Below, piece after piece: positions 15,759-54,440 of a stretch of 64,000 nt of DNA (position 1 is its first letter; every line of letters starts with the position of its first letter). The stretch lies in assembly GCA_964639945.1 (NCBI GenBank), contig CAZXHY010000002.1, positions 183 to 64,182 on the forward strand. Direction: 5' to 3'. The translations under genes were made by a program, and so were the position numbers. The DNA comes from an uncultured Gammaproteobacteria bacterium (GTDB taxonomy: Bacteria > Patescibacteriota > Microgenomatia > UBA10105 > UBA927). Under the pieces are notes generated by a model that saw only the letters and a program-made list of their open reading frames with translations, did not search any database and had not been told where the DNA came from.

Positions 15759-17354
15759 TTGCTCAACGACAACTCTATGAAACAACAAAAAAATACCACC
15801 CTTGTTCATTGGATTTTTTTTATACTTCTTATCTTTAGTATCGGATTTCACTTCTCATTTCTCTCTTCTCTGTACAGATTGGATGATGGAGACACCGCAC
15901 GAGATTATATGGTAGCCAGACATATAGCGCTGTATCAGCAATACCCCACAATAGGACCCAACAATGCTATATACGATTCTGCGCGAGCCAGCCCGCTCTA
16001 CTACTATCTCCTCTCAATCCCAATCCTTATAAATGACAGCATCTACAGTATAGGAGTGCTTAACATTTTATTACAGGCGCTCAGCATCCTCTTTCTTTAT
16101 GCATTAGCGTATATACTTTTTGGACCCACGACAGCGATCCTTACTGCCCTACTACTCTTGTTGAACCAAGAACTTTTCTCTCAATCATTCTATATGATAC
16201 AAGCCCATTTTGGTCATGTTTTTTTTAATGGAAGCTATGCATTTTTAGCATATAGTTACATACGAAAATCACGCATATCGCTCTATATATCTGCGATATT
16301 TTTTTCTTTAGGTTGCATTGTTTCCTTTCATGGTTTTCCGGCGCTGCTCGGATACCTCATTATCATTTATCTTATTTTACGATCACAAAAAGCATCATTA
16401 CAGCGCATCCTTTCTGTGTATGGAACCATGGCATTACTTGTATTATTCTTTTATACACCAACGCTCATAAATATAATCACCTCACGCAACGCATTGTTTC
16501 TAGTGAAAGAACCAGTATATATACAAACACTCAATGACTTCCCAATTCGCGTGATCAGTAATATACGTCTTGCCTTAAACGACTGGATGACATCACTCTG
16601 GCTTCTTCCTCAAATAAAAAATGCGTTGCTTGGGATACTCTGTGTCAGCCTCATACGATTCATGATCTGGGAAAAGACAAAATTAACCCGCATAATCACC
16701 ATTGTTATATTGGCGTATCTTTCCCAAGTTGGATTTTTTGCCGCGCTACTACGCACAGAAACCAACTCTTATCAATACGACGCAATAACGGGACTTGCCG
16801 TGATACTACTCGCATTCTCCGCAGGCTCTACTTGGCCAAAAAATCTTTTTGGTCGCATAGCAAGCATGCTATCAATCATCGGCCTCATGTTCTTGGTCAT
16901 ACCTACACATGGATATATACAATGGCAACAGTTACAAATGTCTCAACCTCAAAAATTAGAATCAAAGCTCGAACCATTGTTTCGCTATATAGATGAACAA
17001 AAAGTCATTCACCCAACCGACTGGAGCAAACGATTTCAAATTGCCATGTATAATGGTCGCGCGAACATGTATCACTGGAAAGAGTCGGTTATTTGGAATG
17101 CACTAGAACATCGATATACCACGCCGTTCGTTCGAGTAGTCAACACTGGCTACAATTACACGCCGCTTGCCACCAGTGAGACTCGGTATATTCTCATATG
17201 TGAAGAATATACATCTCTCCAAGACGCAACAAATCGATGTATCTCTTCATTCATGCAAAAGCGTGAGGATTCAACATACGTAATTCGCGTGATTTCTGAT
17301 AATAGCCCTCATGGATATATCATATATACAGCACAGCACGATCCCGCTAAATGA
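15759..17354 (+). CDS. Polytopic membrane glycosyltransferase, GT-C fold; paralog of 18597..20279
   Basis: 531 aa with about 12 TM helices. The DDGD motif (YRLDDGDTARDYMVARH) follows TM1. Confidence 0.65.
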   Translation: MLNDNSMKQQKNTTLVHWIFFILLIFSIGFHFSFLSSLYRLDDGDTARDYMVARHIALYQQYPTIGPNNAIYDSARASPLYYYLLSIPILINDSIYSIGVLNILLQALSILFLYALAYILFGPTTAILTALLLLLNQELFSQSFYMIQAHFGHVFFNGSYAFLAYSYIRKSRISLYISAIFFSLGCIVSFHGFPALLGYLIIIYLILRSQKASLQRILSVYGTMALLVLFFYTPTLINIITSRNALFLVKEPVYIQTLNDFPIRVISNIRLALNDWMTSLWLLPQIKNALLGILCVSLIRFMIWEKTKLTRIITIVILAYLSQVGFFAALLRTETNSYQYDAITGLAVILLAFSAGSTWPKNLFGRIASMLSIIGLMFLVIPTHGYIQWQQLQMSQPQKLESKLEPLFRYIDEQKVIHPTDWSKRFQIAMYNGRANMYHWKESVIWNALEHRYTTPFVRVVNTGYNYTPLATSETRYILICEEYTSLQDATNRCISSFMQKREDSTYVIRVISDNSPHGYIIYTAQHDPAK

Positions 17355-18588
17355 TTTCTTTTCTCAAAAAGAGAGACTTCCAAAGATATATAAGGCTTCC
17401 TAACGAAATAATCCCTGCCAACACTACTGTGCTATCTATCCCCTGTCTATGTTCTCCAAAAAACGGAATACCGGTAAATCCATAAAACACAACAAGATTT
17501 AAAATATTTATTGAATCTACAACACGAAGAATAAGATAATTTTTTCGCGTTGGATGGAAAAGGTATAGGAGCAACGCGACAATACTTCCAAGTATGAAGT
17601 GATTTTCATGAACACCAAAACTGAATAAGTAATACACGAGTGCCCCAAGCAGACAACTATGTAATAAATCCTCCTCTCGAGTTTTTTTGTGTGCATGTCT
17701 AAACACTTGCCAGCAGACCAACGCATAGCTCATCGAAAAAATGGTTAACTGCACCCAAGCCCAACTTTGTGTCGGTAACGCGTCGGTAGTGGCAACAACT
17801 CGAACAAAAGGTAAATTTTGTATTACCCACGAGATGTTTAACGCGTACGTTGCAGTATGCAACAGCACGTTTCTCAATGAGAGCAATAATCCCGCTCCCA
17901 CATCTTGGGTGAACGGATACAGCGACAAAACTGAGACCACTAATCCACTTATAAACTCAGCCACTCTCATAATTCGACCCTTTGGGTTTGGCCCAGAAAA
18001 CACATATGTCAACATGATCGGAAGCAATATGATAGGCTGCCACTTTACAAGACAGCTTAAGCCAAACAAATATCCGCTCCAAAAAAGTCTTTTTTTCACC
18101 AAAAACAAAACGCTTAATACCAAAAAAGGAAAAGCTAAAATATCAGTATATGCCAGCCCTTGCGTGCTCAAAACCAGAGAAAACATACTCAAATACAAAA
18201 CAGTATTCTGCCAAATTGTTCGCTTTGCATCCCCCACAGAACGACTAAACCATGAAACAGCAATCAACGTAATGATATAAAACAACAAAATCAAAAGCTT
18301 CATGGAAATGAGAGTTCCAATGACTTGTACAGGAAATACTAATGAAAAAAGATAAAAAATAAGCGCATGTCCAAGAGGAAACTTGGTAAGAATCATGTTG
18401 CTTGGACAAAGATAATTGAGGCAATCAGGAATAAACGAATTCCCACGAATCAAAATGTCTTGAAAAATTACTTCCCAATTTCTCGCATCTACGGTTCCAC
18501 GAGAGGAAAAGAGAGCTATATGTATAGCAATCACCACAAGCACAATCGCCCACATTCCAAATCTCTGTATTGTTGTGTGTAATCTCAT
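17347..18588 (-). CDS. Polytopic integral membrane protein (413 aa), GT-C/DUF2029-like mannosyltransferase suspected
   Basis: About 10 TM helices and an acidic motif after TM1 (VDARNWEV). Overlaps the 3' end of 15759..17354 by 8 nt in convergent orientation. Confidence 0.5.
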   Translation of the reverse strand: MRLHTTIQRFGMWAIVLVVIAIHIALFSSRGTVDARNWEVIFQDILIRGNSFIPDCLNYLCPSNMILTKFPLGHALIFYLFSLVFPVQVIGTLISMKLLILLFYIITLIAVSWFSRSVGDAKRTIWQNTVLYLSMFSLVLSTQGLAYTDILAFPFLVLSVLFLVKKRLFWSGYLFGLSCLVKWQPIILLPIMLTYVFSGPNPKGRIMRVAEFISGLVVSVLSLYPFTQDVGAGLLLSLRNVLLHTATYALNISWVIQNLPFVRVVATTDALPTQSWAWVQLTIFSMSYALVCWQVFRHAHKKTREEDLLHSCLLGALVYYLFSFGVHENHFILGSIVALLLYLFHPTRKNYLILRVVDSINILNLVVFYGFTGIPFFGEHRQGIDSTVVLAGIISLGSLIYLWKSLFLRKEII

Positions 18589-18596
18589 ATACCTGA

Positions 18597-20279
18597 TTGT
18601 TTCCTAGCATTAGAATACTTCCTATCTACCACAAAAAGAAGCTGATACAATACAATATTCATACCTTGATCTGTTGTATGCATTCTTCTCCCAAAAAAAC
18701 ACTTCAAATTTGGCACCACCCGTATTTTTTCCATGGAGTATTTATATTTTTTCTCTTCTTAGGATTTGTGATTCGATATGCTTTATTCTATCAAAACTTT
18801 AATATTGAAGACGGTGATATAACAAGCGTATACCATATTGCCAATCACATCATTACCTACCATGAACTTCCGATAATTGGTGAACCAAATAGTATATACA
18901 CACTTCTCCCACATAGTCCGCTCTACTTTTACCTCACTGCGCTAGGACTTTTGATTCACAATAGTATTTTTACACTTGGTGTTATGGGCATGCTACTTCA
19001 ATTTGTGTATATCGTATTACTATATGCATTGGCTTTCGTGCTGTTTAATAAATCTGTCGCGCTACTTACTGGTCTTATACTCGTAGGAAATCAGCAATTT
19101 ATTGCGCAAACACATGTCATGTATCAACGATGGTTTGAACAACCCTTTTTTGCTGCGAGCTATCTATTTCTCGCACTTGCATACACCAAAAAAAATTACG
19201 CATACACGCTCTATGCCGCGATATGCTTTACCATCGCATTGGGAATAGGCCTACATGGATATGCTGCGCTTCCGGTTTTTCTTTTTCTTATAGGTATTAC
19301 CCTACACAAAACACAAGCTTCACTGCGTAAATATATAACCGTTGGGATTATTATGATTGGAATTTGGTCATTATGCTATGCAACTGTGCTTGGATATTTA
19401 ACCAAAAACAATCATTTATTTTTTGCGTTTCAAGAATCTGTATACACCACCTCTATCACAGGCTATCTACGAGAGTTTATTTTAAACATTGGGCGCCTGT
19501 TTTACGGCACACTATATAGCGATCTGCTTCCTCCCATCATTCAAGGAGGGAGCATACTTCTTTTTTTGAGCATTGTTGGTATCGCTGCACTTAGAAAGAA
19601 ACTGCACTACTCACCATACCTTCTTAGTATCATTACCTACATTTTTTCGATCATTCTCATTGCATCATTTCTTCAAAAAGACACCAGAGACTATCACTTT
19701 GTCGCGGCCTTTGGTCCGTTTATCATTCTCCTCTCTGCACTCACACAATCATTTGTACAAAAAGCAAAATCAGATAAAATAAACACTATCATTTGCACAA
19801 TGCTTCTTTTGATCATTGGCGCACCTTCCACAAGATTTTTGCAACAAAATCAACAAAAACAAGATATATATATCGCGCAACTAAACGCAGCGAAATCAAC
19901 AACCCCATACATACAACAACTTCGACAAGAAAACGCGTCTTGGCCAAACCAAACAAGTATTGAGTTATATGGGAATACAATTATCGGTCCATACGACCCA
20001 ACAGATAACATATTTTGGCCCATTTTTGAGAAAATAGCGTACACCAAACTTTCACAAACAACCTCGGGAATAACCACCCCACTCACCCGTACTCCAGACA
20101 ATATTTTTGTCATATGTTCGGACTATAAATCAGTACAGCACGCTGAAGAACGCTGCAATAAAGCCTTTCTCACACGGCATCCAAACTTTGAATCAACTCT
20201 GATTTATACAGGAGACTCAGATGGGAAATATATCCTCTACATAGGGAAACGAAAAAAAGCTCCGACATCGACACAATAG
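18597..20279 (+). CDS. Polytopic membrane glycosyltransferase, GT-C fold (probable true start at MHSSPKK, nt 18678)
   Basis: The EDGD motif (FNIEDGDITSVYHIANH) aligns with the DDGD of 15759..17354. Both also share a C-terminal soluble domain ending in CxxxF..R. Confidence 0.65.
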   Translation: MFPSIRILPIYHKKKLIQYNIHTLICCMHSSPKKTLQIWHHPYFFHGVFIFFLFLGFVIRYALFYQNFNIEDGDITSVYHIANHIITYHELPIIGEPNSIYTLLPHSPLYFYLTALGLLIHNSIFTLGVMGMLLQFVYIVLLYALAFVLFNKSVALLTGLILVGNQQFIAQTHVMYQRWFEQPFFAASYLFLALAYTKKNYAYTLYAAICFTIALGIGLHGYAALPVFLFLIGITLHKTQASLRKYITVGIIMIGIWSLCYATVLGYLTKNNHLFFAFQESVYTTSITGYLREFILNIGRLFYGTLYSDLLPPIIQGGSILLFLSIVGIAALRKKLHYSPYLLSIITYIFSIILIASFLQKDTRDYHFVAAFGPFIILLSALTQSFVQKAKSDKINTIICTMLLLIIGAPSTRFLQQNQQKQDIYIAQLNAAKSTTPYIQQLRQENASWPNQTSIELYGNTIIGPYDPTDNIFWPIFEKIAYTKLSQTTSGITTPLTRTPDNIFVICSDYKSVQHAEERCNKAFLTRHPNFESTLIYTGDSDGKYILYIGKRKKAPTSTQ

Positions 20280-20303
20280 GTTTTACAAAAGGAAGGCGCC
20301 GAC

Positions 20304-21761
20304 CTAGCGAAGCTGAAACAAAACCATCTCCCCTTCTCTATCAAATTCTTGTAATTTTCCACGTACCCCCATGTTCATAATGGCACTTGCATATGCATCA
20401 AATGGGACTTGGTCATGAAACGATCGATTAGATGGCCACCGCACAAATAAAAATTGTGCATGTTCTCCAGTATCTAGCCACCAACAAGGAGTGTTGCACT
20501 GCGGAATATCAGTACGCGAAATCAATTCAGCGACATATATATATTTTCTATGAGAAATATGAGGTACCAAATTAGGCTGTGCGCTAAGTCGCATCTCGGA
20601 AGGTATTCGCTTGATAAAAATATCAGCATCTCTCATCCACTGCTCTTGTATCCAATATCGCTGAGTAAAAACTTCGTACAGAGGAAATCTATATCCAATA
20701 ATTATTCCAACATTAAGGAGTATCAACAGCCCAATAATCACGTCAATTCGTATCTGTATTTTTTTAAACCATTCAAGAGTTTGGAATAATCCAAGCAATA
20801 ATAATGGCGCAAGTACAATACGATGATGAGTAAACGGCTTATCTTTAAAATACGCAGCTGGCCCAGTATTGAAATACTGGGCCATATCCACAACCACCGC
20901 CATAACTGATCCCAAAGAAAATAATGGCAAAAATCCAAATGATATATAGCTATACCACCACGATGACAGTTTATCGTGATTATCAAACAACAATCGAATA
21001 TTTTCCACAGGACTCAATGAGATAACTGGAGTGTATTCATATCCAATAGGCGAAAATCTACCGACGATATACATGGATATGCCGGTAGCAAACACCCCAA
21101 ACGGAATAAACCACCATGCTCTTGCTCGGAATCGATTATCAAAAACATACACGAGTCCCAAACAGGAAAGAGCGATACCCATGTTTTCTTGTGTACCCAA
21201 CAACAAAATCAGGGAAATAACGAAGAAGACTGTCCTTTTAGCCTCAAAAAAATATGCAGTCCACAATAAAAATACCACGCCAATCACTACAGGATGAAAA
21301 TCAGAAAATATCGATTGTTGTATACCAAAAAATACACTGTATATCATCGCAACGCCTAAGGATTGCCAAGAAGAAAGCATTCGTAACCTTGCAAGCTTAT
21401 ACACTGGAATAATCGAAACGCAAATAACCACCGCCTGAAATATAAGTAATGCCCGAACATCATTCCAAATCCAATACAGGGGTGATAAAAGCGGCAATGT
21501 AAGGGTCAAGTGATCACCGAATATATGCCTGCGATACACGGTATTATACATGCCATAAAATCGAGAGTATAACCAAATTGCCTGATCGTATTGGCCCAGA
21601 TCCATTCCTCTTGGAGCGAATCGTCTATATTCACCTAGCGAAATACATGTATAAACCACAGAGAGAATTACTCCCCAAATACCCAATATTTTTAAAGCGA
21701 TATTCTCAGATATATTCGCTCTTGTTTTTTTCACCGACGAGTCGTATTTTTTACTAAACAT
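20304..21761 (-). CDS. Polytopic membrane protein (485 aa), GT-C-like (DUF2079-type) glycosyltransferase suspected
   Basis: About 12 TM helices. First-loop motif MDLGQYDQAIWLYSRF. Lies immediately downstream of a DegT-GT2 pair. Confidence 0.5.
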   Translation of the reverse strand: MFSKKYDSSVKKTRANISENIALKILGIWGVILSVVYTCISLGEYRRFAPRGMDLGQYDQAIWLYSRFYGMYNTVYRRHIFGDHLTLTLPLLSPLYWIWNDVRALLIFQAVVICVSIIPVYKLARLRMLSSWQSLGVAMIYSVFFGIQQSIFSDFHPVVIGVVFLLWTAYFFEAKRTVFFVISLILLLGTQENMGIALSCLGLVYVFDNRFRARAWWFIPFGVFATGISMYIVGRFSPIGYEYTPVISLSPVENIRLLFDNHDKLSSWWYSYISFGFLPLFSLGSVMAVVVDMAQYFNTGPAAYFKDKPFTHHRIVLAPLLLLGLFQTLEWFKKIQIRIDVIIGLLILLNVGIIIGYRFPLYEVFTQRYWIQEQWMRDADIFIKRIPSEMRLSAQPNLVPHISHRKYIYVAELISRTDIPQCNTPCWWLDTGEHAQFLFVRWPSNRSFHDQVPFDAYASAIMNMGVRGKLQEFDREGEMVLFQLR

Positions 21762-21766
21762 ATTTG

Positions 21767-22948
21767 CTAATCACGCTTTGACAGTATGCGTACTATTTTC
21801 ATAATTTCACCGTGCGTTAATATACCTGAAGAAGGTAAATACAATCCCTCACGCATCAACATATCCGATACGGGATACGATTCATTCGTCGTATACATCG
21901 CATACGCGGGCTGAAGATGTATGGGGATAAAAAATCCTCGTGTTTCTATACCATGCTTTGCCAAACGCAATCGCACCTGATCCCTCGTCATTCCATATGT
22001 GGACGCATCAACACGAAATCCAAACACCCAATGAGCATGCATGCTCTCAGGCGGAGTAATTGAAAATATAAACCCTCGTACTTCTTTAAGATATGTCTTA
22101 TACATAGCTGCTAATTTTTTGCGTTTCATAAAAAGCTCTCGAAATCGCTCTGTCTGACCCAGCCCTACAGCGGCCTGCAAGTTTGTCATGTTGTAACTAA
22201 ACCCAACATCGTTATGCCAAAAATGCGTTCTTTTACTAAATGCGTGGTCACGCAAATACGCTACTTTTTCAGCTAACGCCCGATCATTTGTCGTTACCAT
22301 GCCTCCCTCACCTGTCGTGATAATTTTATTGGCATACAAAGAAAATCCCGCAATATCACCAATTGAACCCACTCGTTTTCCTTTATATAAAGCACCATGT
22401 GCCTCAGCAGCATCCTCAATAACTCGAAGTCCGTGCTTCTTTGCTAACAAAAGCACAGGATCCATATCCACAGGGAGTCCATACACATGTACTACCATAA
22501 TAGCTTTTGTTTTCTTGGTTATTTTAGACTCGATCTTGGTCACATCCATATTCCATGTAAATGGATCTGCATCAATAAAGATTGGCTTGGCGCCACAATA
22601 CGTCACTGCATTTGCCGTAGCAATCATCGTGAATGTCGGGACAATAACCTCGTCGCCCTCCCCTATGTCACATGATAAAAGTGCCAAGTGAAGCGCTGAT
22701 GTGCCACTATTCACCGCTACTGCGTATCGGGTCTTTGACACAAGTTTTGCAAACGCCTTTTCAAACCGAGAAATATATGGCCCAGCCGACGATACCCATG
22801 TTGAACGGTATGCATCCAAAAGATAGACTTCTTCCAGTTTTGACAAGTCTGGCGCTGCTACTGAAATTTTATGGATACCTGCGAGTATAGGTTCTGGCAT
22901 CAGCGCAAATGAGTGCGCGTGAGCTACTGTATCAGTTCTATGTTTCAT
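21767..22948 (-). CDS. DegT/DnrJ/EryC1/StrS (ArnB-type) PLP-dependent sugar aminotransferase
   Basis: Has the Lys-containing motif FSLYANKIITTGEGGMVTTND, plus ...DAAEAHGA... and an N-terminal ...SGTSALHLAL... Confidence 0.85.
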   Translation of the reverse strand: MKHRTDTVAHAHSFALMPEPILAGIHKISVAAPDLSKLEEVYLLDAYRSTWVSSAGPYISRFEKAFAKLVSKTRYAVAVNSGTSALHLALLSCDIGEGDEVIVPTFTMIATANAVTYCGAKPIFIDADPFTWNMDVTKIESKITKKTKAIMVVHVYGLPVDMDPVLLLAKKHGLRVIEDAAEAHGALYKGKRVGSIGDIAGFSLYANKIITTGEGGMVTTNDRALAEKVAYLRDHAFSKRTHFWHNDVGFSYNMTNLQAAVGLGQTERFRELFMKRKKLAAMYKTYLKEVRGFIFSITPPESMHAHWVFGFRVDASTYGMTRDQVRLRLAKHGIETRGFFIPIHLQPAYAMYTTNESYPVSDMLMREGLYLPSSGILTHGEIMKIVRILSKRD

Positions 22949-23652
22949 ATCCGTTTCTTTGAAATACTATACGCTTCTTTTATATACGATATACACATCG
23001 ACAGTACACGCGACTTACTCTTTCCATACATTCGTCTTTTATAGTACACGGGCAACTCACATATATAAAATCCGCGTCGATGCGCATAATACACCAGACG
23101 AATATGGTAATCACCGTACCCAAAATATATCTGAGATAACCCAAAGTGAATAACTTCTTTTTTGAATATTGCGTAATATCCACTCGTACAATCTTTTACC
23201 GTAACACGAAGTATGTGGCGTAATACATAATTGATAAGCATGCTGAAATAGTACCTATATCTATCGTGCATACCACCACCCGCTACGAATCGTGAGGCTA
23301 TAACAAGAACGTGTGGTGCACTATACTCTATAAGACTTGGTAATAACAAAGGGTCATGATTTCCGTCGGCATCCATCCCAATGATCAATGTACCTCGCGC
23401 CCTTTCTATGCCAAATCCTATGGCTGTTCCCAGACCTTTTTTATCCACTCGCTCATATACATGAAGTTGTTCATATTTTTTTTGCAATGTAACAAATGTA
23501 TCACGAGAACCATCAGTGCTCATGTCATCGACCACGATGATTTCAAAACTACTATTTTTTAGGATAGTACATATTTGTGGGATCAGAATCTCCAAATTTC
23601 CTCGTTCATTAAACGTCGGCAAAATAATGGAGACGTATGGTTGCCGTTTCAT
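22945..23652 (-). CDS. GT2-family polyprenyl-phosphate sugar transferase (DPM1/GtrB/ArnC-like); start taken at MKRQPYV
   Basis: SIILPTFNERGNLE...VVDDMSTDGSRD...GMDADGNHDP. The ATG overlaps the stop of the upstream methyltransferase (ATGA at 23649-23652). Confidence 0.8.
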   Translation of the reverse strand: MKRQPYVSIILPTFNERGNLEILIPQICTILKNSSFEIIVVDDMSTDGSRDTFVTLQKKYEQLHVYERVDKKGLGTAIGFGIERARGTLIIGMDADGNHDPLLLPSLIEYSAPHVLVIASRFVAGGGMHDRYRYYFSMLINYVLRHILRVTVKDCTSGYYAIFKKEVIHFGLSQIYFGYGDYHIRLVYYAHRRGFYICELPVYYKRRMYGKSKSRVLSMCISYIKEAYSISKKRI

Positions 23653-24380: not shown

Positions 24381-24402
24381 ATAGGGAAAAACTATTCAAT
24401 CA

Positions 24403-26120: not shown

Positions 26121-26144
26121 ATCTAATTTATTAGCTGTGACTAA

Positions 26145-33716: not shown

Positions 33717-33735
33717 GATTGACTCATCTACATAT

Positions 33736-42924: not shown

Positions 42925-42940
42925 AAAAATGTTGTGGATC

Positions 42941-44617: not shown

Positions 44618-44670
44618 AGTCTTTCAAGAGTATAGCATCGCTTGACTTCGCCAGTATATTCCACAATAAT

Positions 44671-45231: not shown

Positions 45232-45262
45232 GACATATTCCCTGCCTACACAAGTTTTTTCT

Positions 45263-46381: not shown

Positions 46382-46385
46382 TCGC

Positions 46386-47075
46386 ATGAAAAAACTGCCG
46401 GAACTTTCTTTATTTTTCCCTTGCCTCAATGACGCGCAATCATTAGCACGCCTTATCTCAAGGGCAGATCAAATTGCAAAACAGGTTGCCATACGGTATG
46501 AAATATTGGTCATAAATGATGGCTCGACGGACAACACAAGTCGCGTACTTGCACGACTCCAAAAACGATACATCCACCTGCACACAATCACTCACCCCAA
46601 AAATATGGGGTACGGTGCAGCATTACAATCAGGATTTTCTAACGCTAGATATGACTGGGTTTTTTATACAGACGGAGACGGACAATATGACCCTTCTGAG
46701 CTAAAGAAACTAGTGGAACGTGTTACGCCATCTGTTGATGTGGTAAATGGGTACAAAATACACCGCGCAGATCATTGGACTCGCACAGTGCTAGGCGTGC
46801 TTTATAATCGTGTAGCTCATGTCATAACTCGGCTACCCATTCGTGATATAGATTGTGATTTTCGCCTTATTCGGCGTTTGGCACTACGCGATATCACCTT
46901 GCACAACGACTCTGGAGCCATCTGTATAGAACTTATTTCCAAACTACACACACATGGCGCAAAATTTGCAGAGGTCCCAGTTCATCATTATCCACGCCGT
47001 TTTGGTCGATCTGAATTTTTTCGCATCTCGCATCTTTCTACTATGCTACACTCACTAACGCGCCGTAGATTCTGA
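46386..47075 (+). CDS. GT2-family polyprenyl-phosphate sugar transferase (ArnC/DPM1-like)
   Basis: LSLFFPCLNDAQSL...VINDGSTDNTSRV...TDGDGQYDP. There is a GAGGT Shine-Dalgarno-like motif 7 nt upstream. Confidence 0.8.
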   Translation: MKKLPELSLFFPCLNDAQSLARLISRADQIAKQVAIRYEILVINDGSTDNTSRVLARLQKRYIHLHTITHPKNMGYGAALQSGFSNARYDWVFYTDGDGQYDPSELKKLVERVTPSVDVVNGYKIHRADHWTRTVLGVLYNRVAHVITRLPIRDIDCDFRLIRRLALRDITLHNDSGAICIELISKLHTHGAKFAEVPVHHYPRRFGRSEFFRISHLSTMLHSLTRRRF

Positions 47076-47100
47076 CACGCATATTCTTTATACTTTACCT

Positions 47101-47778
47101 ATGGAATCTGACAGTCAATCTGATATCAAAACACTACTTCCAGCCGTTGGTATCAGTATTTTTTTGATACTCATCATAGGGCTTGCTGTAACACGTGCCA
47201 AATCACAAAAAGGCACAATTGTCCTTCCGGGGGGTGTTACCTATTTAGGCCCCACGCCTACTCCAACACCTGCAAATGGTGCAAAATTTGACTCAGTCAT
47301 GGGTGGCCAAATCCCCATACCAGACAGTGCCCAATGGGTAGAACAAAAAGGGAAACTATTCCCATACAGTTTCGCATATCCCAACACCATCTCGCTCGGA
47401 GTATTCCCGAATGATCCATATGACTCCGTAACGGTTTTTTATAATGGCACTGATGCGCAAGGAAATCTTTTCTTTCGCATAGAAGATCTCACGCAATTAC
47501 AAAAAGTGTCGTTCATTACAAAGCCAAAAATCGAATATGTCAACCAATGGTGGAAAGACTATTCATGGAGTGGAGTCTCTAGTGTGACACCGTTTACCAA
47601 TAGCAAAGGGCTCAAAGGATACCGTGCAAAATACATAGACAGCAAAGGTCAAACTCCATATGACCATGTATTTTTTGAAGTACCAAATAATAAAAATCTG
47701 CTCATATGGATCAGTGGTAAATTATTTTCTCAAACCGTTTTCGACAAACTCGTTGACTCAGTGAGCTGGAGCAAATAA
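47101..47778 (+). CDS. Hypothetical membrane-anchored extracytoplasmic protein (225 aa)
   Basis: One TM segment (LLPAVGISIFLILIIGLAV), a TPTPTP linker and a beta-rich C-terminus. Confidence 0.55.
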   Translation: MESDSQSDIKTLLPAVGISIFLILIIGLAVTRAKSQKGTIVLPGGVTYLGPTPTPTPANGAKFDSVMGGQIPIPDSAQWVEQKGKLFPYSFAYPNTISLGVFPNDPYDSVTVFYNGTDAQGNLFFRIEDLTQLQKVSFITKPKIEYVNQWWKDYSWSGVSSVTPFTNSKGLKGYRAKYIDSKGQTPYDHVFFEVPNNKNLLIWISGKLFSQTVFDKLVDSVSWSK

Positions 47779-47785
47779 ACCGTCT

Positions 47786-49408
47786 ATGCCATTTATCGCA
47801 TGGATCATTACAATGGTTTTCACTGCAGAAAACCTTTACCCCTATTTCGTAGGTCTCTGGCAAACACCAAGCGGTGCAGTATTTTTGGGAACCGTGCATC
47901 ACCCAAGTGATTACTTTTACTATGTATCACAATTTGCCCAAGGCGCTACGAGATGGATTACTACACTTGATCTGTATACAGCAGAATCTATAGGACCAAC
48001 GTTTGTGGGCTGGAGCAATGTGTTTCTGGGGCACATTCTAGCACTTTTTGGCACAAATCCATTCCAAAGCTACCACATCTCAATAGCACTATTATGCATC
48101 GCGTTATTTTTTGCGGCATTTCACCTTTCCAAAGAAGTGCTTGGTAGCAACAGACTAGCGGTAATCAGCCTATTCCTATTCGGCATATATCATGCGTTCC
48201 CTATACTGCGCGATGGACTACCCTCATATGGTGACTATTTCAACAACTTCGCCGTCCCTCGTGTCCGATTTGGAGCTGTTCCACATCAGCTACTTCTTGC
48301 CGTAGCGTCTATCTCTCTATCTTTTATCATGCTTCGGTGGCACAGGCAGAAAAATCGCTCGATACGACTCCTTATGGGGATCGTCATATCCAGCATAATT
48401 CTTGCAAGCTTACAACCCGCTCTATGGATAGTAATCATAGGAATTTTTGGTGTTACATCAACTATGTATGCATTGTCAAAAAAGGATAAAAGCGAAATAT
48501 TGAACACATTTATTTTCCCTATATTTATCGCGGGATTAGCTGGTATTTTACCTATTCTTTATCTCTCAAATCTCTTTGACTCACTTCCGTTTATACAACT
48601 CAGAACTTGGGAGGCCTCTCAGCAAACACGTTTCACTATCGGACATTTTATAAGCGCGACGGGACCAATATTTATTGGCGCCATAGCATCAATACCGTGG
48701 TTTCTGGTACAACGCTCGTACACTCAAGTATATGTGGTGTTATTTACGATGATTTCGTATGTATTATTTCTCTCCCCTATCCCAGCTATGCTCAATCTTT
48801 CTCACGTACGATTTATGTCTACACTGGCGATTTTATATCTATGCATCATCACAACCGTTGGGATAGAAAAATTATCGGAAATATTGGCATACTACCTACA
48901 TAAAGCATTCCCTCAAACGCGCCGTTTTCAGGCTCGTCATGTGACGCTATTTACGGTAATTTTACTTACGATATACCTTATCCCAAATCACCTACTCACG
49001 ATAAAATTAGCTAGTGAATTTAGTCCAACCAACGCGTATCACTACCTCGCACGAAACGAATATGAATTTCTTCTCAAAACCTCTAACACAAGCGATCCTG
49101 CCGATATATTTCTTGTCATTTGGCCATACAACTCGGTATTCCCAGCTATCACCGGTAGAAAAAGTTTTCATGGACACTCACTTCTGACCATAAACACAAT
49201 TCAAAAAGATGCGCAGGCAATACAATTTTTTGATAACAAAATGAACGACGAACAAGCACGGGCTTTCTTGCGGGACAATCGTATAACACAAGTCATAGCC
49301 TACTCATGGACCACTCTACCAAAAGGCCTTATGATACATACGGCGACAGGTGGCTCACTTTCGCTTTTTGCCGTAAATCAAGAGCACTTGAAACCCTATA
49401 GTAAATAG
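47786..49408 (+). CDS. Polytopic membrane protein (540 aa), GT-C-like; paralog of 35279..36871
   Basis: See 35279..36871. More than 12 TM helices. Confidence 0.6.
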   Translation: MPFIAWIITMVFTAENLYPYFVGLWQTPSGAVFLGTVHHPSDYFYYVSQFAQGATRWITTLDLYTAESIGPTFVGWSNVFLGHILALFGTNPFQSYHISIALLCIALFFAAFHLSKEVLGSNRLAVISLFLFGIYHAFPILRDGLPSYGDYFNNFAVPRVRFGAVPHQLLLAVASISLSFIMLRWHRQKNRSIRLLMGIVISSIILASLQPALWIVIIGIFGVTSTMYALSKKDKSEILNTFIFPIFIAGLAGILPILYLSNLFDSLPFIQLRTWEASQQTRFTIGHFISATGPIFIGAIASIPWFLVQRSYTQVYVVLFTMISYVLFLSPIPAMLNLSHVRFMSTLAILYLCIITTVGIEKLSEILAYYLHKAFPQTRRFQARHVTLFTVILLTIYLIPNHLLTIKLASEFSPTNAYHYLARNEYEFLLKTSNTSDPADIFLVIWPYNSVFPAITGRKSFHGHSLLTINTIQKDAQAIQFFDNKMNDEQARAFLRDNRITQVIAYSWTTLPKGLMIHTATGGSLSLFAVNQEHLKPYSK

Positions 49409-49428
49409 TATATACTCATTTTATACGT

Positions 49429-50205
49429 ATGGCATCCGAACAAAGGCCACAAATTCCAAATCCATACAAAGAAGTCAATTACAATGTTCGTATTGGCGCG
49501 CTCACCACTTCGGAAAAAATGGATCTTCTGGCCAATCTCTTTCTCAAACTTGAACATAAGCATCTTCGCGAGCCTCACCGAGTACCACAGGCCAAACCTG
49601 AAGCGAAAATCATGTTTTTGATCGGTGGACCAAAAAACGATGTAACCGAGGCTCGAGACTTTGACGGCAACTTGATTCACACCCGACATTTAAATCACCC
49701 ACGACCAATGTTTGCAGAAATTCCTGAAGCGCTCAACTCTATCTCTCACTGGTTTGATATGTTGGCAATAAGCAAAGAACCAGAAGGTAAACTCCCCTCA
49801 CCCGTCGCACCCATTAGCGAAGTGTCGGATGTTGTCTACAATATATCTCATTTACTCACACTTGACCCTAATTTTTATGACAACTACACGGTGTATCTCG
49901 ATCGCATCGCAGACTCATTAGGATTTAGCCTCGACCAACTCCTAACCGTCGCACTCTACAAATACAACTTTAGACTGGGACAGGGCAAGTCACAAAAAAA
50001 TATCATTGTCGAAAACTCTATGATAGAAAACCTCATGAGACAAACTCAACCAGATGGAAAACCATTTGTCCCAACCCCAAATGAGACACAATTTCAACAG
50101 ACATTTCACACGCTGTCTGAGGTGCAATCCATGTTAAAGACTAGGCTAGATCAACTCAGGCAAGCTGATGAATGGCGAAAAAACGCCCTCAAATCCACAG
50201 ACTAA
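49429..50205 (+). CDS. Hypothetical soluble protein (258 aa)
   Basis: Long ORF with no TM segment and no recognisable motifs. Confidence 0.5.
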   Translation: MASEQRPQIPNPYKEVNYNVRIGALTTSEKMDLLANLFLKLEHKHLREPHRVPQAKPEAKIMFLIGGPKNDVTEARDFDGNLIHTRHLNHPRPMFAEIPEALNSISHWFDMLAISKEPEGKLPSPVAPISEVSDVVYNISHLLTLDPNFYDNYTVYLDRIADSLGFSLDQLLTVALYKYNFRLGQGKSQKNIIVENSMIENLMRQTQPDGKPFVPTPNETQFQQTFHTLSEVQSMLKTRLDQLRQADEWRKNALKSTD

Positions 50206-50253
50206 CTCGAAGATCCCCTCGCATCAAAATCAAAATTTCCGTATGATACACGC

Positions 50254-52119
50254 ATGCGGAAAAATTCACTGCTTTACTGGTGTTTTGGCATAGCGATAGT
50301 ACTTCGCTTACTGCTTATTCTAAATCCGGGATTTGAGGCAGATATATCATTTTGGAAATCATGGGGACTGGCTACATACGACAAAGGGATAGTCGAGGGA
50401 ATGAAGGTGACAAACAACAATTACCCCACCCCATTTGCTTACATTTTAGGCTTCATGGTCACGGTATATAGCAAATTTGCCGATCCTCATAATTTTAATG
50501 AGTTTTGGAACAACACCAACTTACTATTTCTCACCATCAGCAAACTCGTGCCTATACTTGCTGACTTCGGTATAGCAACTTTACTACTTTTTATAGGAAA
50601 AAATACGAAAAAATTAGGCTTTCCTGACATTTCTTTCAAAATTTTTACGCTAACATTCTATGAGTTGGCTGCGATAGTGTATCTACTCTCGCCTCTCGCA
50701 CTGATCGATGGCGCATGGTGGGGACAAGTGGATGCGCTAGGGGTATGTATTTTCCTTACTGCGCTAATCCTCGCTCTCAAGCGTCAACCATTTTGGGCAG
50801 GAGCCATATTCATGCTGGCCATGATGACGAAGCTACAAAACATGATTTATGGACCAGTGTTTTTTCTATTTATATGGCAAAGTCTAGGCTTTTCTGGACT
50901 TGTACGTGCCATTGGCGGTGCATTAGTCAGTTTTTTGGGATTAAATATAGAGTTTCTCTTGGCACGAAATGCAGACCGTGTATTTGCTAGCCTCACCGAA
51001 AATTATGACTATTTCCCATGGATGAGTCTAAACGCATACAACCTCTGGTGGATCACAACTGCCGGACGCGGCATGATAACTTCCGACAAATTGTCGATAA
51101 TTGGCATAGTCAATGCGAAAACAGTCGGACTACTTGTCTTCTCGTCTCTTTATCTCTTTGCGGCACTTCGACAGTTCATCGTAGGCCTCCAAAACCCCCC
51201 TTCGCAAAACACTTCGGCCGGACGAGTCAGTACGATAAACCTTCGCAACCTCATCGAGTCACTCATCATCGTAAACGCTGCTTTCTTTCTCTTCCAAACA
51301 CAATCTCACGATCGCTATGCATTCCCATTATCGGTATTTCTGCTTCTATGGGCACCATTTTATATAGCAAAACACAATAATCACATCCAACACAGGCTGA
51401 GAATTTTCTCTTGGATGTATGCGATATTTACCTTTTTTTATTTCTATAACTTACATACGGCACTCGTAGCCAACTACCCAAACAATGGTATACCTATCCT
51501 TTCTGGACTCGCTCAGCCCATGTTTACCATCCCAACGTCATTTGTGCTATTGGGGTTATTTGGAGTATTCGTCTTGCATCTCGTACGCGACTCGCATATA
51601 TCAAAATATGTAGCTGCACTTTCCTGTATATTTGTCATATCGGCTCTGAGTATGCTCAATCGTCCACTGATTAGCCGTCAACCCGTAAGCCTTACCAAGA
51701 TAGCACCATTTGTGTATGAGCAAGGATACGGACGCCGACAAGTAAACAAATCAGTAAATAGCTACCTCGGTGGGCCAAACAAATGGAACAGGTTATCTGT
51801 GCAATACGTATTTTATCCCACTGGAATAGGTACTCATGCCAATTCACGCGACGTCTATGACATAAATAAAAAATTTACAAAATTTACCACAGACTTTGGC
51901 ATAGACACGGAAGCAGGCGCCAAAGCATCGGCTATATTTGAAATTTATGGTGACGACAAACTCCTCTTTCGTTCAGAAAAAATGGGCAGATATACTATGC
52001 CCGCTCACGCTGAGGTAACAGTAAAAGGAGTGCGACATCTGAAATTAGTTACAACCGATGCGGGTGACGGTATTTTCGACGACCACACTGATTGGCTAAA
52101 TCCAACACTGTGGCCATAA
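50254..52119 (+). CDS. Polytopic GT-C-like membrane protein with a C-terminal NPCBM-like putative carbohydrate-binding domain
   Basis: N-terminus: about 12 TM helices with the acidic motif PGFEADISFW. C-terminus: GIDTEAGAKASAIFEIYGDDKLLFRS...VTTDAGDGIFDDHTDWLNPTL, matching the D-H-x-D-W ending of NPCBM/NEW2 domains. Confidence 0.6.
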   Translation: MRKNSLLYWCFGIAIVLRLLLILNPGFEADISFWKSWGLATYDKGIVEGMKVTNNNYPTPFAYILGFMVTVYSKFADPHNFNEFWNNTNLLFLTISKLVPILADFGIATLLLFIGKNTKKLGFPDISFKIFTLTFYELAAIVYLLSPLALIDGAWWGQVDALGVCIFLTALILALKRQPFWAGAIFMLAMMTKLQNMIYGPVFFLFIWQSLGFSGLVRAIGGALVSFLGLNIEFLLARNADRVFASLTENYDYFPWMSLNAYNLWWITTAGRGMITSDKLSIIGIVNAKTVGLLVFSSLYLFAALRQFIVGLQNPPSQNTSAGRVSTINLRNLIESLIIVNAAFFLFQTQSHDRYAFPLSVFLLLWAPFYIAKHNNHIQHRLRIFSWMYAIFTFFYFYNLHTALVANYPNNGIPILSGLAQPMFTIPTSFVLLGLFGVFVLHLVRDSHISKYVAALSCIFVISALSMLNRPLISRQPVSLTKIAPFVYEQGYGRRQVNKSVNSYLGGPNKWNRLSVQYVFYPTGIGTHANSRDVYDINKKFTKFTTDFGIDTEAGAKASAIFEIYGDDKLLFRSEKMGRYTMPAHAEVTVKGVRHLKLVTTDAGDGIFDDHTDWLNPTLWP

Positions 52120-54440
52120 TGCATATGAAACATATAGAAAAATATCTTGGTATTGCGCTCCTTATATTTGCGTTAGGGTTTAACTTCTGGACGTATCGAT
52201 CCGAGCCTTCTGCGAGGTTAGATCCCAACGACAACACCTTCCAATTTGCCCTCGTCGACCGAACCAACCAAATTTGGGACTATGCAAACACGCATTGCAA
52301 AAGCATTTTTCCAACAAACCTCTTCTGCAAAATTTCTCTGCTAACCGATCATTGGGTACCCAACTGGGCAGAGGGATATAACCTTCCCTATTACTACTCT
52401 CATATTCCACAAATTGCCATCGTCGCCTCATACAGACTTTTCCAAACTATTTTTCAAACACAACTATTACTATTTAGTTTCTATCACCTCAGCATATTTA
52501 CGCTGCTGTGCATATTTCCATTATCGCTATTTCTAGCATTACGAATTATTGGATTATCTTGGATAGCAAGTGGCATAGGGGCCACAATCGCCTCTCATCT
52601 TTCTACCGATGGTTTGTATGGACTAGATCCTGCGTCATTTTTATGGCGAGGATTCGGCCTCTCCAGCCAGCTTTTTGCCATGATATGGTTTCCACTGGCT
52701 ATCGCTACAGCTTGGAGATGCTTAAAAACACCTTCTGGTGATGTAAATGCCAAAGCTGTACTCGTGCCAATTTTGTTTCTAGCCGCAACAACAGCGGGTC
52801 ATTTGGGTATAGGCATCATCGCATTTATAACGATTGGCATGCTTTATCTGAGTCCACTACTGTTATCTTTCCTCACCCACTCCATCGACAAGACTATTCT
52901 AGATACCCTAAAAACCAACATGGTAAAACTGATCATAATGTTTACCGGAGTCGGATTACTTCTGGGGTACTGGATTGTTCCCATACTCAAGGACAGCAAC
53001 TATCACAACATATCTGTATGGGATCCAATATGGAAATTCGATTCATATGGATACCGCGAGGTGTTAAAAAACCTCTTTAATGGTGACATATTTGATTTTG
53101 GGCGCTTCCCAACGCTCTCCATACTCGTAGTAGTTGGAATATTTGTCGCCCTCCATAGTCCGCTATCAGGATTCTATCCATTCGCCTTTCTTTTGATCTT
53201 CTGGGTATTACTCTACTTTGGACGAACTACATGGGGTGGACTCATAGATATCATCCCAGGCATGAAAGAATTTCATATCTCTCGTTTCATCGTAGGAGTA
53301 CATATGAGTGGATTATTCCTCATTCCCCTTGTAGCAGAGTGGATAATCACAAAAACGCACAAAACAACCCGAGTCGCTGTCGGAATACTATGTAGCGTGA
53401 TCATCGTATTGGCGGTATACCCACAAACCCTCCGATACGCCAAACATAATGATTTTCTCATCGACCGAGCCAACACCAACTACAAACCCATAGCGTCAGA
53501 CAGTGACAATTTGATCCAGACACTCAAAAATAAACTCGTCACAAACTCTGGGCGTGTCTATTTTGGACGGGGTGGAAACTGGGGCAAGAACTTCCGAGTC
53601 GCAGAAACCCCCTACTATCTCTACGCATCGACTTTTGGCATCCCTACTGTACTTTGGCTACCTCAAACATGGTCACCAAACTCTGATACAGAACAATTTT
53701 TTAGCGATAACCGTGAGAGCGACTACACCCTCTACAACGTGCGATATGTCGTAACACCACCAGATCTAGGCAAAGCCGAAATCCAACCCTTCTGGAAGCC
53801 TCTGGCGGCAGGACATACATGGAAATTATATGAGGTGGAGACAGATGGATATATCACTAGTGGCATTCGTCCGGTAATCGTCAGCGTTGACAAAGAAACA
53901 TATATAAATCTAGTCCATCTTTGGATAACCTCTGACGCTCCTAAAATAGGATTATACCCTGAGCTTACTTTTGACAAAAACTATCCTAAAAAAACTGGTT
54001 TTCCTAATTTTCGAATGATCGACAACGTAACCTATACAACTCCTTCTGGAGGAACACAAAATCTTTTTGCAGATCAACCAATCTACGGAGCTTCACAAAA
54101 GTGCAACAAGATAGATAATGTAATCATACTTTCTCAAAAATCTACATCTGACATGATATTTGAGGCAAAAGTAAAGGCGGAACGAGATTGTCCAGATTCG
54201 CTTGTTGTATTACGTCAGACGTATCACCCATCATGGCATGCGACTATTGATGGAAAACCTGCAAAAACAATAAGTGTATTCCCTTTTTACACAGCTGTTG
54301 TTGTAGAAACTGCAGGAAATCACACCATTCAATTCGCCTATAAACCTTCAGTGATCAAACAGACACTGCTCATTCTCGCTTTTATATCTATAGGACTTCT
54401 TTTTGGATACCTCTTTTATAAAAAAGACTCGTCACAATAG
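52092..54440 (+). CDS. YfhO-family polytopic membrane protein (782 aa; start possibly at nt 52119, overlapping the upstream stop as TAATG)
   Basis: The C-terminal motif YHPSWHATIDGKPAKTISVF...FAYKP, followed by a final TM helix, matches the YfhO C-terminus. The same motif occurs in 38506..40623. Confidence 0.65.
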   Translation: MAKSNTVAIMHMKHIEKYLGIALLIFALGFNFWTYRSEPSARLDPNDNTFQFALVDRTNQIWDYANTHCKSIFPTNLFCKISLLTDHWVPNWAEGYNLPYYYSHIPQIAIVASYRLFQTIFQTQLLLFSFYHLSIFTLLCIFPLSLFLALRIIGLSWIASGIGATIASHLSTDGLYGLDPASFLWRGFGLSSQLFAMIWFPLAIATAWRCLKTPSGDVNAKAVLVPILFLAATTAGHLGIGIIAFITIGMLYLSPLLLSFLTHSIDKTILDTLKTNMVKLIIMFTGVGLLLGYWIVPILKDSNYHNISVWDPIWKFDSYGYREVLKNLFNGDIFDFGRFPTLSILVVVGIFVALHSPLSGFYPFAFLLIFWVLLYFGRTTWGGLIDIIPGMKEFHISRFIVGVHMSGLFLIPLVAEWIITKTHKTTRVAVGILCSVIIVLAVYPQTLRYAKHNDFLIDRANTNYKPIASDSDNLIQTLKNKLVTNSGRVYFGRGGNWGKNFRVAETPYYLYASTFGIPTVLWLPQTWSPNSDTEQFFSDNRESDYTLYNVRYVVTPPDLGKAEIQPFWKPLAAGHTWKLYEVETDGYITSGIRPVIVSVDKETYINLVHLWITSDAPKIGLYPELTFDKNYPKKTGFPNFRMIDNVTYTTPSGGTQNLFADQPIYGASQKCNKIDNVIILSQKSTSDMIFEAKVKAERDCPDSLVVLRQTYHPSWHATIDGKPAKTISVFPFYTAVVVETAGNHTIQFAYKPSVIKQTLLILAFISIGLLFGYLFYKKDSSQ

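Follow-up and report, generated by a model that had tools for sequence, protein, structure and literature searches.

A lineage-conserved cluster rich in GT-C-type glycosyltransferases and its possible role in envelope glycan assembly in a Gottesmanbacteria-like Patescibacterium

The described systems closest to the locus studied here are the ArnB/ArnC/ArnT, GtrA/GtrB/GtrX, CsbB/GtcA/YfhO and DPMS/PMT sets, the mycobacterial assembly of arabinogalactan and lipomannan (AftA-D, EmbA-C, PimE and further GT87/GT-C enzymes) and the STT3/AglB/PglB enzymes. In mycobacteria, many GT-C enzymes act stepwise with two lipid donors, and their genes are more dispersed. The window, the whole 64-kb stretch of DNA that was analysed, resembled the first group in that genes for a DegT aminotransferase, a GT2 of the DPMS/ArnC/GtrB type and a GT-C protein adjoined (45263, 46386 and 47786). 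Unlike these three-component systems, the cluster had no flippase gene in the window, its small GT2 enzymes carried no TM helices, 14 GT-C proteins stood against five donor synthases and no component reached an equivalog cut-off. Lipid A is, to our knowledge, not expected as an acceptor in the Patescibacteria lineage. Compared with the mycobacterial proteins, sequence identity was only 9-14%, the phylum is unrelated, the genome comprises ~1 Mb and the GT-C genes were tightly clustered; the donors would be amino, acetamido and methyl deoxyhexoses instead of decaprenyl-P-arabinose and polyprenyl-P-mannose. In contrast to STT3/AglB/PglB, a sequence-level PF02516 match was absent from the cluster, the WWDxG oligosaccharyltransferase motif had zero occurrences anywhere and the donor synthases would produce single sugars linked through a monophosphate instead of oligosaccharides linked through a diphosphate.

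The window stems from the metagenome-assembled genome of a tiny-genome Patescibacterium of the candidate phyla radiation. It encoded 14 polytopic proteins of 413-782 aa, 13 of them inside 15759-54440. Together with sugar-loading and sugar-tailoring enzymes they spanned ~45 kb. The ORF listing held a reading frame at each coordinate given in the first-pass annotation, and 6-11 TM segments were present in each of the 14 large proteins in a Kyte-Doolittle scan. Seven were at or above the Pfam gathering score (PMT_2, GT87, DUF2079, YfhO) and three (33736, 9772, 52092) were tied to GT-C via close homologs with PMT_2 or YfhO. The GT-C-like proteins of the annotation were thereby recovered through reading frames, TM segments and Pfam, homolog or hhalign links; its count of 13 GT-C and two YfhO proteins was corrected to a total of 14, namely 12 plus two YfhO-like. 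All 14 have some evidence of GT-C membership, and their identity as GT-C-type proteins, not transporters, is supported. By type, six were PMT_2-type (two via homologs only), three belonged to a family termed B, two were YfhO-like and one each was GT87, weakly GT87-like with an NPCBM domain, and DUF2079.

Among the PMT_2-type proteins, 15759..17354 (+, 531 aa) and its paralog 18597..20279 (+, 560 aa; 28% identity over 523 aa) scored 26.7 and 26.2 bits, both less than 1 bit above the PMT_2 threshold of 26.1. D43-G44-D45 of the former was invariant. The protein at 36868..38493 (+, 541 aa; PMT_2 47.4 bits) was a core gene product, found in 25 related loci and always 3' of family B. Its paralog at 41359..42924 (-, 521 aa; 26% identical) matched PMT in addition to PMT_2 (46.7 bits) and showed W-D-E after TM1. 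It was missing in the closest relative; its two flanking genes adjoin in locus L005. The distant PMT_2 protein at 33736..35349 (-, 537 aa) was encoded by a core gene found in 27 related loci. PMT_2 was matched in five of its 27 orthologs, and R63, F65, D66, D68 and E69 of the first loop were invariant. The PMT_2-related protein at 9772..11424 (-, 550 aa, 8 TM) had no match itself in the Pfam scan, its homologs P0127 (55% identical) and P0131 (44%) bore PF13231, and E42, D45 and D46 after TM1 were conserved. The gene lies outside 15759-54440, amid genes for Cys-rich paralogs.

PMT_2 is the family of protein O-mannosyltransferases, and the presence of 6/14 proteins of this type in a window rich in secreted or anchored proteins suggests that most GT-C proteins could be protein O- or N-glycosyltransferases of differing acceptor specificity, writing a varied glycan pattern on secreted or surface proteins. 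This reading, close to that of the first-pass annotation, is one to which we attach a rather low probability. PMT_2 also includes enzymes that modify lipids and glycans, ArnT among them, and the missing WWDxG motif speaks against it as well. In 34 related loci, the 10-kb flanks of the conserved core contained none of the Cys-rich paralogs, which are therefore not a conserved partner. Five donor synthases alone cannot explain 14 transferases unless acceptors differ.

Family B comprised 35279..36871 (+, 530 aa), a core gene product found in 29 related loci, and its paralogs 47786..49408 (+, 540 aa) and 42941..44617 (-, 558 aa), which matched the 35279 family in hhalign with 100% and 99.9%, respectively. 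None of the three matched a Pfam family in the Pfam scan. In hhalign, 47786 matched the PMT_2 family of 36868 with 87% (E 3.7e-6), linking family B to PMT_2, and AftA and ALG12 were among the closest structures. D46 of 42941 was conserved. The fold of family B is GT-C, and it is a GT-C family without recognition in current sequence libraries.

The GT87 (DUF2029-type) protein at 17347..18588 (-, 413 aa, 9 TM) scored 30.5 bits at a threshold of 25. The polytopic protein at 20304..21761 (-, 485 aa) matched PF09852 with 126 bits, and D54 and D59 followed TM1; DUF2079 is presumably a member of the GT-C clan in Pfam. The GT-C-like protein at 50254..52119 (+, 621 aa) carried a C-terminal NPCBM domain (111 bits). 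Its GT87 score of 20.1 bits was below the threshold of 25, F-E-A-D after TM1 was conserved and a homolog in locus L036 had an identical architecture with the NPCBM fusion kept. This fusion points to a glycan acceptor, which is a further argument against a pattern written on proteins. The YfhO match of 38506..40623 (-, 705 aa; 47.3 bits) was confined to the C-terminal 80 aa, corresponding to the last ~80 profile positions, likewise in four orthologs. Its catalytic domain matched nothing, and G33-D34-D35 after TM1 was conserved. The protein at 52092..54440 (+, 782 aa) was without a Pfam-level match of its own in the Pfam scan; many homologs, 46-60% identical, bore PF09586 (YfhO), and its C-terminus matched 38506 (hhalign 96%).

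These two YfhO-family proteins, weak matches of 38506 to PgfM1/PgfM2 and GT2 matches to PgfS, a CsbB-like enzyme of streptococci, would fit a cluster whose main task is to decorate peptidoglycan or a teichoic-acid-like polymer via CsbB/GtcA/YfhO-type three-component systems, with PMT_2 and family B proteins in the same role for other sugars. Patescibacteria have a Gram-positive-like envelope, which also fits. Such a function is nevertheless improbable, as YfhO-like proteins made up only 2/14, GtcA was absent from the window and Pfam scans of the window detected no TagB/TagF-type or LtaS backbone genes.

A lack of first-loop acidic motifs, named in the first-pass annotation as an argument against glycosyltransferases, was not observed: Asp or Glu residues followed directly after TM1 in 14/14 proteins, and conservation was shown for 12 (not 17347 and 20304). 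In families with enough homologs to align (11-61 sequences, 30-70% identity), the acidic positions of the first loop and additional Arg/His/Lys positions were invariant or nearly so, indicating purifying selection on a catalytic site. This argues against many polytopic paralogs being inactive as degenerate duplicates, Agl23-type flippase helpers or polymerase/ligase-like proteins, with real transfers far below 14. We judge this very unlikely, even though 36868 weakly matched TIGR03663 (36.6 bits; 'flippase activity-associated protein Agl23'), 41359 arose recently as an additional copy and the window has no flippase gene.

Six GT2 enzymes were found in the cluster. Five small ones best matched DPMS, ArnC and GtrB; the sixth, 28010..29059 (-, 349 aa), was generic and EpsD-like (PF00535 and Glyco_tranf_2_2; EpsD 111 bits), with three C-terminal TM segments, PDB matches in the N-terminal half only and conservation in 23 related loci. 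The polyprenyl-phosphate type annotated for all six thus held for the five small enzymes and was not clear for 28010. PF00535 was matched by 22945..23727 (-), which had no TM helices, by 26145..26870 (-), by 30900..31622 (-; ArnC 54 bits, AglJ 53.5 bits; conserved in 18 related loci) and by 32934..33764 (-), which was closest to the polyprenyl-phospho-GalNAc synthase PpgS (62.5 bits, full length). The fifth, 46386..47075 (+), had an ArnC-like catalytic domain (NCBIfam ArnC 95 bits) and matched ArnC 9hwj (9e-28), GtrB (4e-13) and DPMS (5.5e-11) in the PDB. A profile of 22945 with three paralogs matched DPMS 5mlz (1.5e-35), ArnC (3e-23) and GtrB (1e-20) in the PDB profile search. The PDB matches spanned the whole catalytic domain of the small GT2 enzymes. 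Their best NCBIfam matches were ArnC, PpgS, AglJ and PgfS, none at a curated cut-off, and the Kyte-Doolittle scan showed neither the TM helices of DPMS nor those at the C-terminus of GtrB, ArnC and CsbB. Based on the five small GT2 enzymes and their best matches, a GT2-to-GT-C relay via polyprenyl-phosphate sugars is the natural reading. Pfam scans of the 64-kb window, 98.8% of which was covered by the listed genes (largest gap 149 nt), detected neither a flippase of the GtrA/GtcA/ArnEF type nor a priming phosphoglycosyltransferase, an LCP ligase or an exporter of the Wzx or ABC type.

The annotated tailoring classes were also present: DegT proteins and SAM methyltransferases with three members each, and a single C-methyltransferase and hexapeptide transferase. 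The DegT aminotransferases resembled WecE, LegC and PseC more closely than ArnB, the type proposed before. The enzyme at 21767..22948 (-; PF01041 388 bits) was closest to the LegC/PseC type, with 325 bits for the LegC family under a cut-off of 420. The WecE-like enzyme at 29056..30213 (-; PF01041 314 bits) was closest to dTDP-4-amino-4,6-dideoxyhexose transaminase (PRK11706 358.9 bits, cut-off 375), and the third was located at 45263..46381 (+; PF01041 278 bits). SAM methyltransferases were encoded at 23649..24380 (-; Methyltransf_11, 54% identical to 25389), 25389..26120 (-; Methyltransf_11 56 bits) and 40620..41387 (-; Methyltransf_23 82.9 bits), and an NDP-hexose C-methyltransferase at 31694..32947 (+; Methyltransf_14 187 bits and Methyltransf_13). 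The presumed N-acetyltransferase was a hexapeptide-repeat acyltransferase at 30363..30896 (-; Hexapep, WcaF family 81.7 bits) that matched NeuD/PglB/VioB at the C-terminus only, N- and O-type being inseparable from family matches. The cupin epimerase was confirmed as an RmlC-like dTDP-sugar epimerase/isomerase of 186 aa (PF00908 50.9 bits) and relocated to 44671..45231 (+); the ORFs 44614-44934 (-) and 44950-45417 (-) were spurious. Cupin, DegT, GT2, GT-C, GT-C-NPCBM and YfhO genes formed an operon-like plus-strand module (44671-54440) in which no gap exceeded 53 nt. A soluble protein of 258 aa (49429..50205, +) and a protein with an N-terminal anchor and a PTPTPTP linker (47101..47778, +; 87% identical in the closest relative) had no family or PDB match. 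Secreted or anchored proteins of the window were the latter, 12 Cys-rich paralogs, two DUF7282 proteins and a 3158-aa protein.

GT-C-type proteins accounted for 14/49 genes of the window, or ~3.1 per 10 kb. Ordinary genomes are far below this density. The annotation had called the locus unusual even for glycosylation islands, which is true in comparison with bacteria in general. It is not unusual among its relatives, with 2.3-5.6 per 10 kb in 31 related loci, to which the window is equal. The core was syntenic in ~25 related Gottesmanbacteria-like species, each with 5-8 GT-C-type proteins per 21 kb. The order 33736(-), 35279(+), 36868(+), 38506(-), 42941(-) recurred in 15-29 species-level genomes, preceded upstream by GT2, DegT, acyltransferase and GT2. 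Such a density is thus characteristic of the lineage and represents a vertically conserved trait, rather than an island that is unique or was gained by horizontal transfer.

The ~3:1 ratio of 14 GT-C proteins to five donor synthases, the conserved tandems, the NPCBM fusion on a GT-C protein and the AftA/ALG12 structures favour stepwise glycopolymer building. The ratio, the fusion and the AftA/ALG12 likeness suit it at least as well as a protein glycan code, over which we infer that a wall glycopolymer is favoured. In the cytoplasm, the RmlC-like cupin, three DegT enzymes, hexapeptide acyltransferase, C-methyltransferase and three SAM methyltransferases would turn NDP-4-keto-6-deoxyhexoses into a number of unusual sugars with amino, acetamido and methyl groups. 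The five TM-less small GT2 enzymes would load these onto undecaprenyl phosphate at the inner membrane face, a flippase encoded elsewhere would move the lipid-linked sugars outward, and the 14 GT-C proteins would transfer them outside the cytoplasm via the conserved first-loop Asp/Glu. Most would act one after another, building or decorating a wall-associated glycopolymer, and a minority may have proteins or a teichoic-acid-like polymer as acceptors. Altogether, the locus is probably a conserved envelope-glycan cluster of this Gottesmanbacteria-like Patescibacterium, working via polyprenyl-monophosphate sugars and with GT-C enzymes acting mostly stepwise on a wall-associated glycopolymer.

The ORF listing held 49 real genes after correction of the cupin locus, which covered 98.8% of the window and left a largest gap of 149 nt. 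Genes and proteins are named here by their start coordinates. Polytopic proteins of 413-782 aa were encoded at 9772, 15759, 17347, 18597, 20304, 33736, 35279, 36868, 38506, 41359, 42941, 47786, 50254 and 52092, each with 6-11 hydrophobic segments in a Kyte-Doolittle scan. For GT-C proteins, 8-13 TM helices are expected, with an extended first loop on the extracytoplasmic side, and the segment counts were taken as consistent with this architecture. The first-pass annotation had announced 13 GT-C proteins plus two YfhO proteins and listed 12 plus two; its coordinates all matched ORFs, but the true total was 14. The transporter classification that it had named as a refutation did not arise, with no transporter family found in any scan.

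The cluster genes were arranged as tight same-strand modules. On the minus strand, 26145 to 20304 comprised genes for a GT2, a methyltransferase, a Cys-rich protein, a methyltransferase, a GT2, a DegT and a DUF2079 protein, and 33736 to 28010 those for a GT-C, two GT2, an acyltransferase, a DegT and a GT2, with a C-methyltransferase gene within this stretch on the opposite strand. Two GT-C genes, 35279 and 36868, formed a plus-strand module. The module 42941 to 38506 (-) held two GT-C genes, a methyltransferase and a YfhO-like gene, and 44671 to 54440 (+) ran through cupin, DegT, GT2, unknown, GT-C, unknown, GT-C-NPCBM and YfhO. The divergent genes 33736-35349 (-) and 35279-36871 (+) overlapped by 71 nt as listed. 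Because the 33736 ortholog in the closest related locus (L005) is shorter by 14 residues, the actual start of 33736 is probably a downstream ATG. Gene 47101-47778 (+), inside the cupin-DegT-GT2-GT-C operon, encoded an anchored protein of no known family with a PTPTPTP linker. It was the best-conserved gene of its module, being 87% identical in L005 versus 63-68% for the adjoining DegT and GT2; possible roles for its product are those of accessory factor or acceptor.

GT-C family or fold support was obtained for seven of the polytopic proteins directly by Pfam, for three by fold, for three through close homologs and for one below threshold. The Pfam gathering score was passed by 7/14. PMT_2 was matched by 15759 (26.7 bits) and 18597 (26.2 bits), which exceeded the threshold by less than 1 bit each, and by 36868 (47.4 bits) and 41359 (46.7 bits, plus PMT). 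Protein 17347 matched GT87 with 30.5 bits and 20304 matched DUF2079 with 126 bits. The YfhO match of 38506 (47.3 bits) was confined to the C-terminal ~80 residues, corresponding to profile positions ~756-835 of 835, and was likewise limited to the last ~80 profile positions in four orthologs. Protein 52092 had no direct PF09586 match; it is a candidate YfhO protein through many homologs at 46-60% identity that were annotated with PF09586. PMT_2 was matched by 5 of 27 orthologs of 33736, and PF13231 was carried by homologs of 9772 at 55% and 44% identity. GT87 was reached by 50254 only below threshold (20.1 versus 25 bits). At its C-terminus this protein matched NPCBM strongly (111 bits), and its architecture was repeated in a homolog from another related locus (L036). 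Most polytopic proteins were without a match in NCBIfam. Linkage of families by profile comparison needed deeper alignments built from related loci, since comparisons restricted to the window paralogs (2-3 sequences) found nothing. With hhalign, no link to other families was found for the membrane domain of 38506 or for 9772, 17347, 20304 and 50254.

The three paralogs 35279, 47786 and 42941, termed family B, had no sequence match in Pfam, NCBIfam or the PDB, and none of the 120 homologs listed carried a Pfam domain. Their AlphaFold model, based on a 58-sequence alignment, reached a pLDDT of 95.2 and a pTM of 0.94, and 35279 was predicted as a complete helical bundle. Foldseek returned 16 matches at E<=0.001, all of them GT-C proteins (STT3, AglB, AftA, DPY19, ArnT, PglB); AftA and ALG12 were among the closest structures. 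Profile comparison linked family B to the PMT_2 family of 36868 (87%, E 3.7e-6). The GT-C identity thus surfaced by fold search and not by PDB sequence searches, which found no GT-C protein with the profiles of family B and 33736. Unlike the oligosaccharyltransferases STT3, AglB and PglB, which have a C-terminal WWDxG motif, family B lacks it: a regex scan found WWDxG in no window protein, and the motif was absent from the conserved columns of the family B alignment (A4).

Acidic residues were present directly after the first TM helix in 14/14 polytopic proteins and were conserved wherever an alignment existed. They comprised D43-G-D45 in 15759/18597, D66-x-D68-E69 in 33736, D42 (35279, 47786) or D46 (42941) in family B, W-D32 and W-D-E in 36868/41359, G-D34-D35 in 38506, E42, D45 and D46 in 9772, D44 and D47 in 52092, and F-E-A-D in 50254. 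For 17347 (D34, E39) and 20304 (D54, D59), the residues were read from single sequences. Therefore, the lack of first-loop acidic motifs, which the first-pass annotation had named as evidence against its assignment, was not observed.

On the donor side, six GT2 proteins were confirmed. A search with 46386 matched ArnC structures (9e-28 over residues 5-217), followed by GtrB and DPMS, and the profile of 22945, 26145, 30900 and 32934 matched DPMS (1.5e-35 over 6-222), ArnC (3e-23) and GtrB (1e-20). These whole-domain matches identify the five small GT2 proteins, at the level of sequence similarity, as the polyprenyl-phosphate glycosyltransferase type. None of the five reached an NCBIfam cut-off. 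The sixth, 28010, had three C-terminal TM segments and was a generic EpsD-like GT2 without whole-length similarity to DPMS, ArnC or GtrB, so that six enzymes of the polyprenyl-phosphate type, as first proposed, became five. The Kyte-Doolittle scan found no hydrophobic segments in these five (229-276 aa), whereas GtrB, ArnC, CsbB and archaeal DPMS have C-terminal anchoring TM helices. In this they resemble TM-less members such as PpgS and eukaryotic DPM1. The Gtr, Arn and Csb three-component systems hold a small flippase (GtrA, GtcA or ArnE/F) beside the GT2 and GT-C. In contrast, no such gene was present in the window, and Pfam scans of genes covering 98.8% of it showed no GtrA-like flippase family.

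The tailoring genes were largely as proposed, with corrections to their specificity. The three aminotransferases belong to the DegT family but are not supported as ArnB: they scored 236, 225 and 159 bits against the ArnB model versus an equivalog cut-off of 631, and WecE-, LegC- and PseC-type models outscored it. The supposed N-acetyltransferase was a hexapeptide transferase closest to WcaF-type acetyltransferases, but the sequence matches do not distinguish N- from O-acylation. The C-methyltransferase and the three SAM methyltransferases were recovered in Pfam scans. The cupin is a real gene at 44671-45231 (+) (PF00908, 50.9 bits). The ORFs 44614-44934 (-) and 44950-45417 (-) were rejected as genes, having no matches and overlapping the plus-strand cupin gene.

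Several anchored proteins of other kinds were encoded nearby. Twelve Cys-rich paralogs of 300-430 aa, located at 1035-9785, 11429-13667, 24403-25467 and 26943-27989, were N-terminally anchored and shared 10 invariant Cys and repeated C-x-H-G-x-G-H and G-V-F-M-E motifs. They had no Pfam match. In a search of 1.84 billion proteins, their profile found 7324 cluster representatives, of which some contained as many as 13 copies in tandem. The AlphaFold model (pLDDT 86.6) was an all-alpha solenoid without significant PDB match. As obligatory acceptor partners they were rejected, because in the 34 related loci the profile detected no member in the 10 kb flanking the core genes described below on each side. 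Among these paralogs, at 14443-15675 (-) and 646-1086 (-), lay two adjacent anchored proteins with DUF7282 matches, one above (29.5 bits) and the other below (20.4 bits) the threshold, as well as a small cupredoxin-like secreted protein in the vicinity. A 3158-aa protein at 54448-63924 (-) had a single hydrophobic segment, at its N-terminus, and its sequence matched nothing in Pfam or the PDB. A segment of ~35 residues, SWWQ.VWR.FFDWLPKSLQDRILNFLMN.GGLGIVP, occurred twice in it, near residues 450 and 1080. No GT-A domain is claimed for residues ~535-800, whose by-eye likeness to one was not backed by any match in Pfam and PDB searches.

Homologs of the window proteins carried the names Gottesmanbacteria, Woesebacteria or Patescibacteria group, and the proteins were encoded on a 64.2-kb NCBI contig and on ENA metagenome contigs. 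A genome scan yielded 34 related loci from species-representative genomes. Between 26145 and 47778, L005 was collinear with the window, its proteins being 55-87% identical in amino-acid sequence, with 41359 missing. The core, found again in 15-29 of the 34 loci, starts with genes for GT2, DegT, acyltransferase and GT2, followed by 33736(-), the pair 35279(+) and 36868(+), and the pair 38506(-) and 42941(-). In these loci, large polytopic proteins numbered 5-8 in ~21 kb, a density of 2.3-5.6 per 10 kb, versus about 3.1 per 10 kb in the window. The high density first described as exceptional is genuine but typical of the lineage. Horizontal acquisition of the region as an island was rejected because Pfam scans showed no integrase family, no tRNA was present, relatives were syntenic, and the GC content (0.37-0.45, lowest at 18-22 kb) showed no discrete block. 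The plus-strand GC skew stayed below zero throughout the window (-0.08 to -0.24 in 2-kb bins) irrespective of gene strand, which suggests a strong replication-strand asymmetry with the minus strand leading.

Enzyme families, one fold, motifs, gene order and conservation are established for the cluster, and its logic matches known lipid-carrier glycosylation systems. A relay by way of polyprenyl-phosphate sugars is the best-supported reading, for which we infer substrates, lipid carrier, flipping and acceptors. NDP-sugars would be tailored in the cytoplasm and loaded by the five small GT2 proteins onto a polyprenyl-phosphate lipid. The lipid-linked sugars would be flipped outward, with no flippase gene in the window, and then transferred by the GT-C enzymes. 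The cluster combined 14 transferases with 5 donor synthases, and one transferase had a carbohydrate-binding module and one belonged to GT87. Because of this 14:5 ratio, the module, the GT87 member and the presence of AftA and ALG12 among the closest structures, the favoured reading by analogy is a glycopolymer assembled or decorated step by step outside the cytoplasm, as in mycobacterial arabinogalactan and lipomannan synthesis. The glycan code on proteins proposed by the first-pass annotation ranks second to this glycopolymer, and a teichoic-acid-type decoration is a minor alternative. A more far-reaching version of the glycopolymer reading is speculative and rather unlikely: Gottesmanbacteria-like Patescibacteria with ~1-Mb genomes might build a complex heteropolysaccharide of the wall extracytoplasmically, using an assembly line of >10 GT-C enzymes, including the wholly new family B, fed by a few polyprenyl-phosphate amino-/methyl-deoxyhexoses, in convergence with mycobacterial arabinogalactan. 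If so, family B, in which an ALG/AftA-like membrane domain would be joined to a C-terminal domain of the AglB type, would deserve a CAZy family to itself.

In the literature searched, no description of the cluster or of a GT-C expansion in Patescibacteria was found; multiple dolichol-phosphate mannosyltransferase copies were noted in Peregrinibacteria (PMC4736985). The variant features are the scale of 14 GT-C proteins, TM-less donor synthases, the absence of a flippase gene, a GT-C family that escapes sequence libraries and the ~1-Mb genome. Family B, missed by Pfam, NCBIfam and PDB sequence searches yet confidently modelled, is a concrete target; further ones are the TM-less donor synthases and the GT-C protein fused to NPCBM. 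Bacteria of the candidate phyla radiation have very small genomes and presumably live attached to other cells, and to our knowledge almost nothing is known of their envelope chemistry. The cluster spans ~45 kb and contigs of relatives reach 1.22 Mb (JAHFKK010000001.1), so it would take up roughly 4% of a genome of that size. The retention of the core order in about 25 species indicates a central biological role, in this lineage, for surface glycans built from lipid-linked rare sugars.
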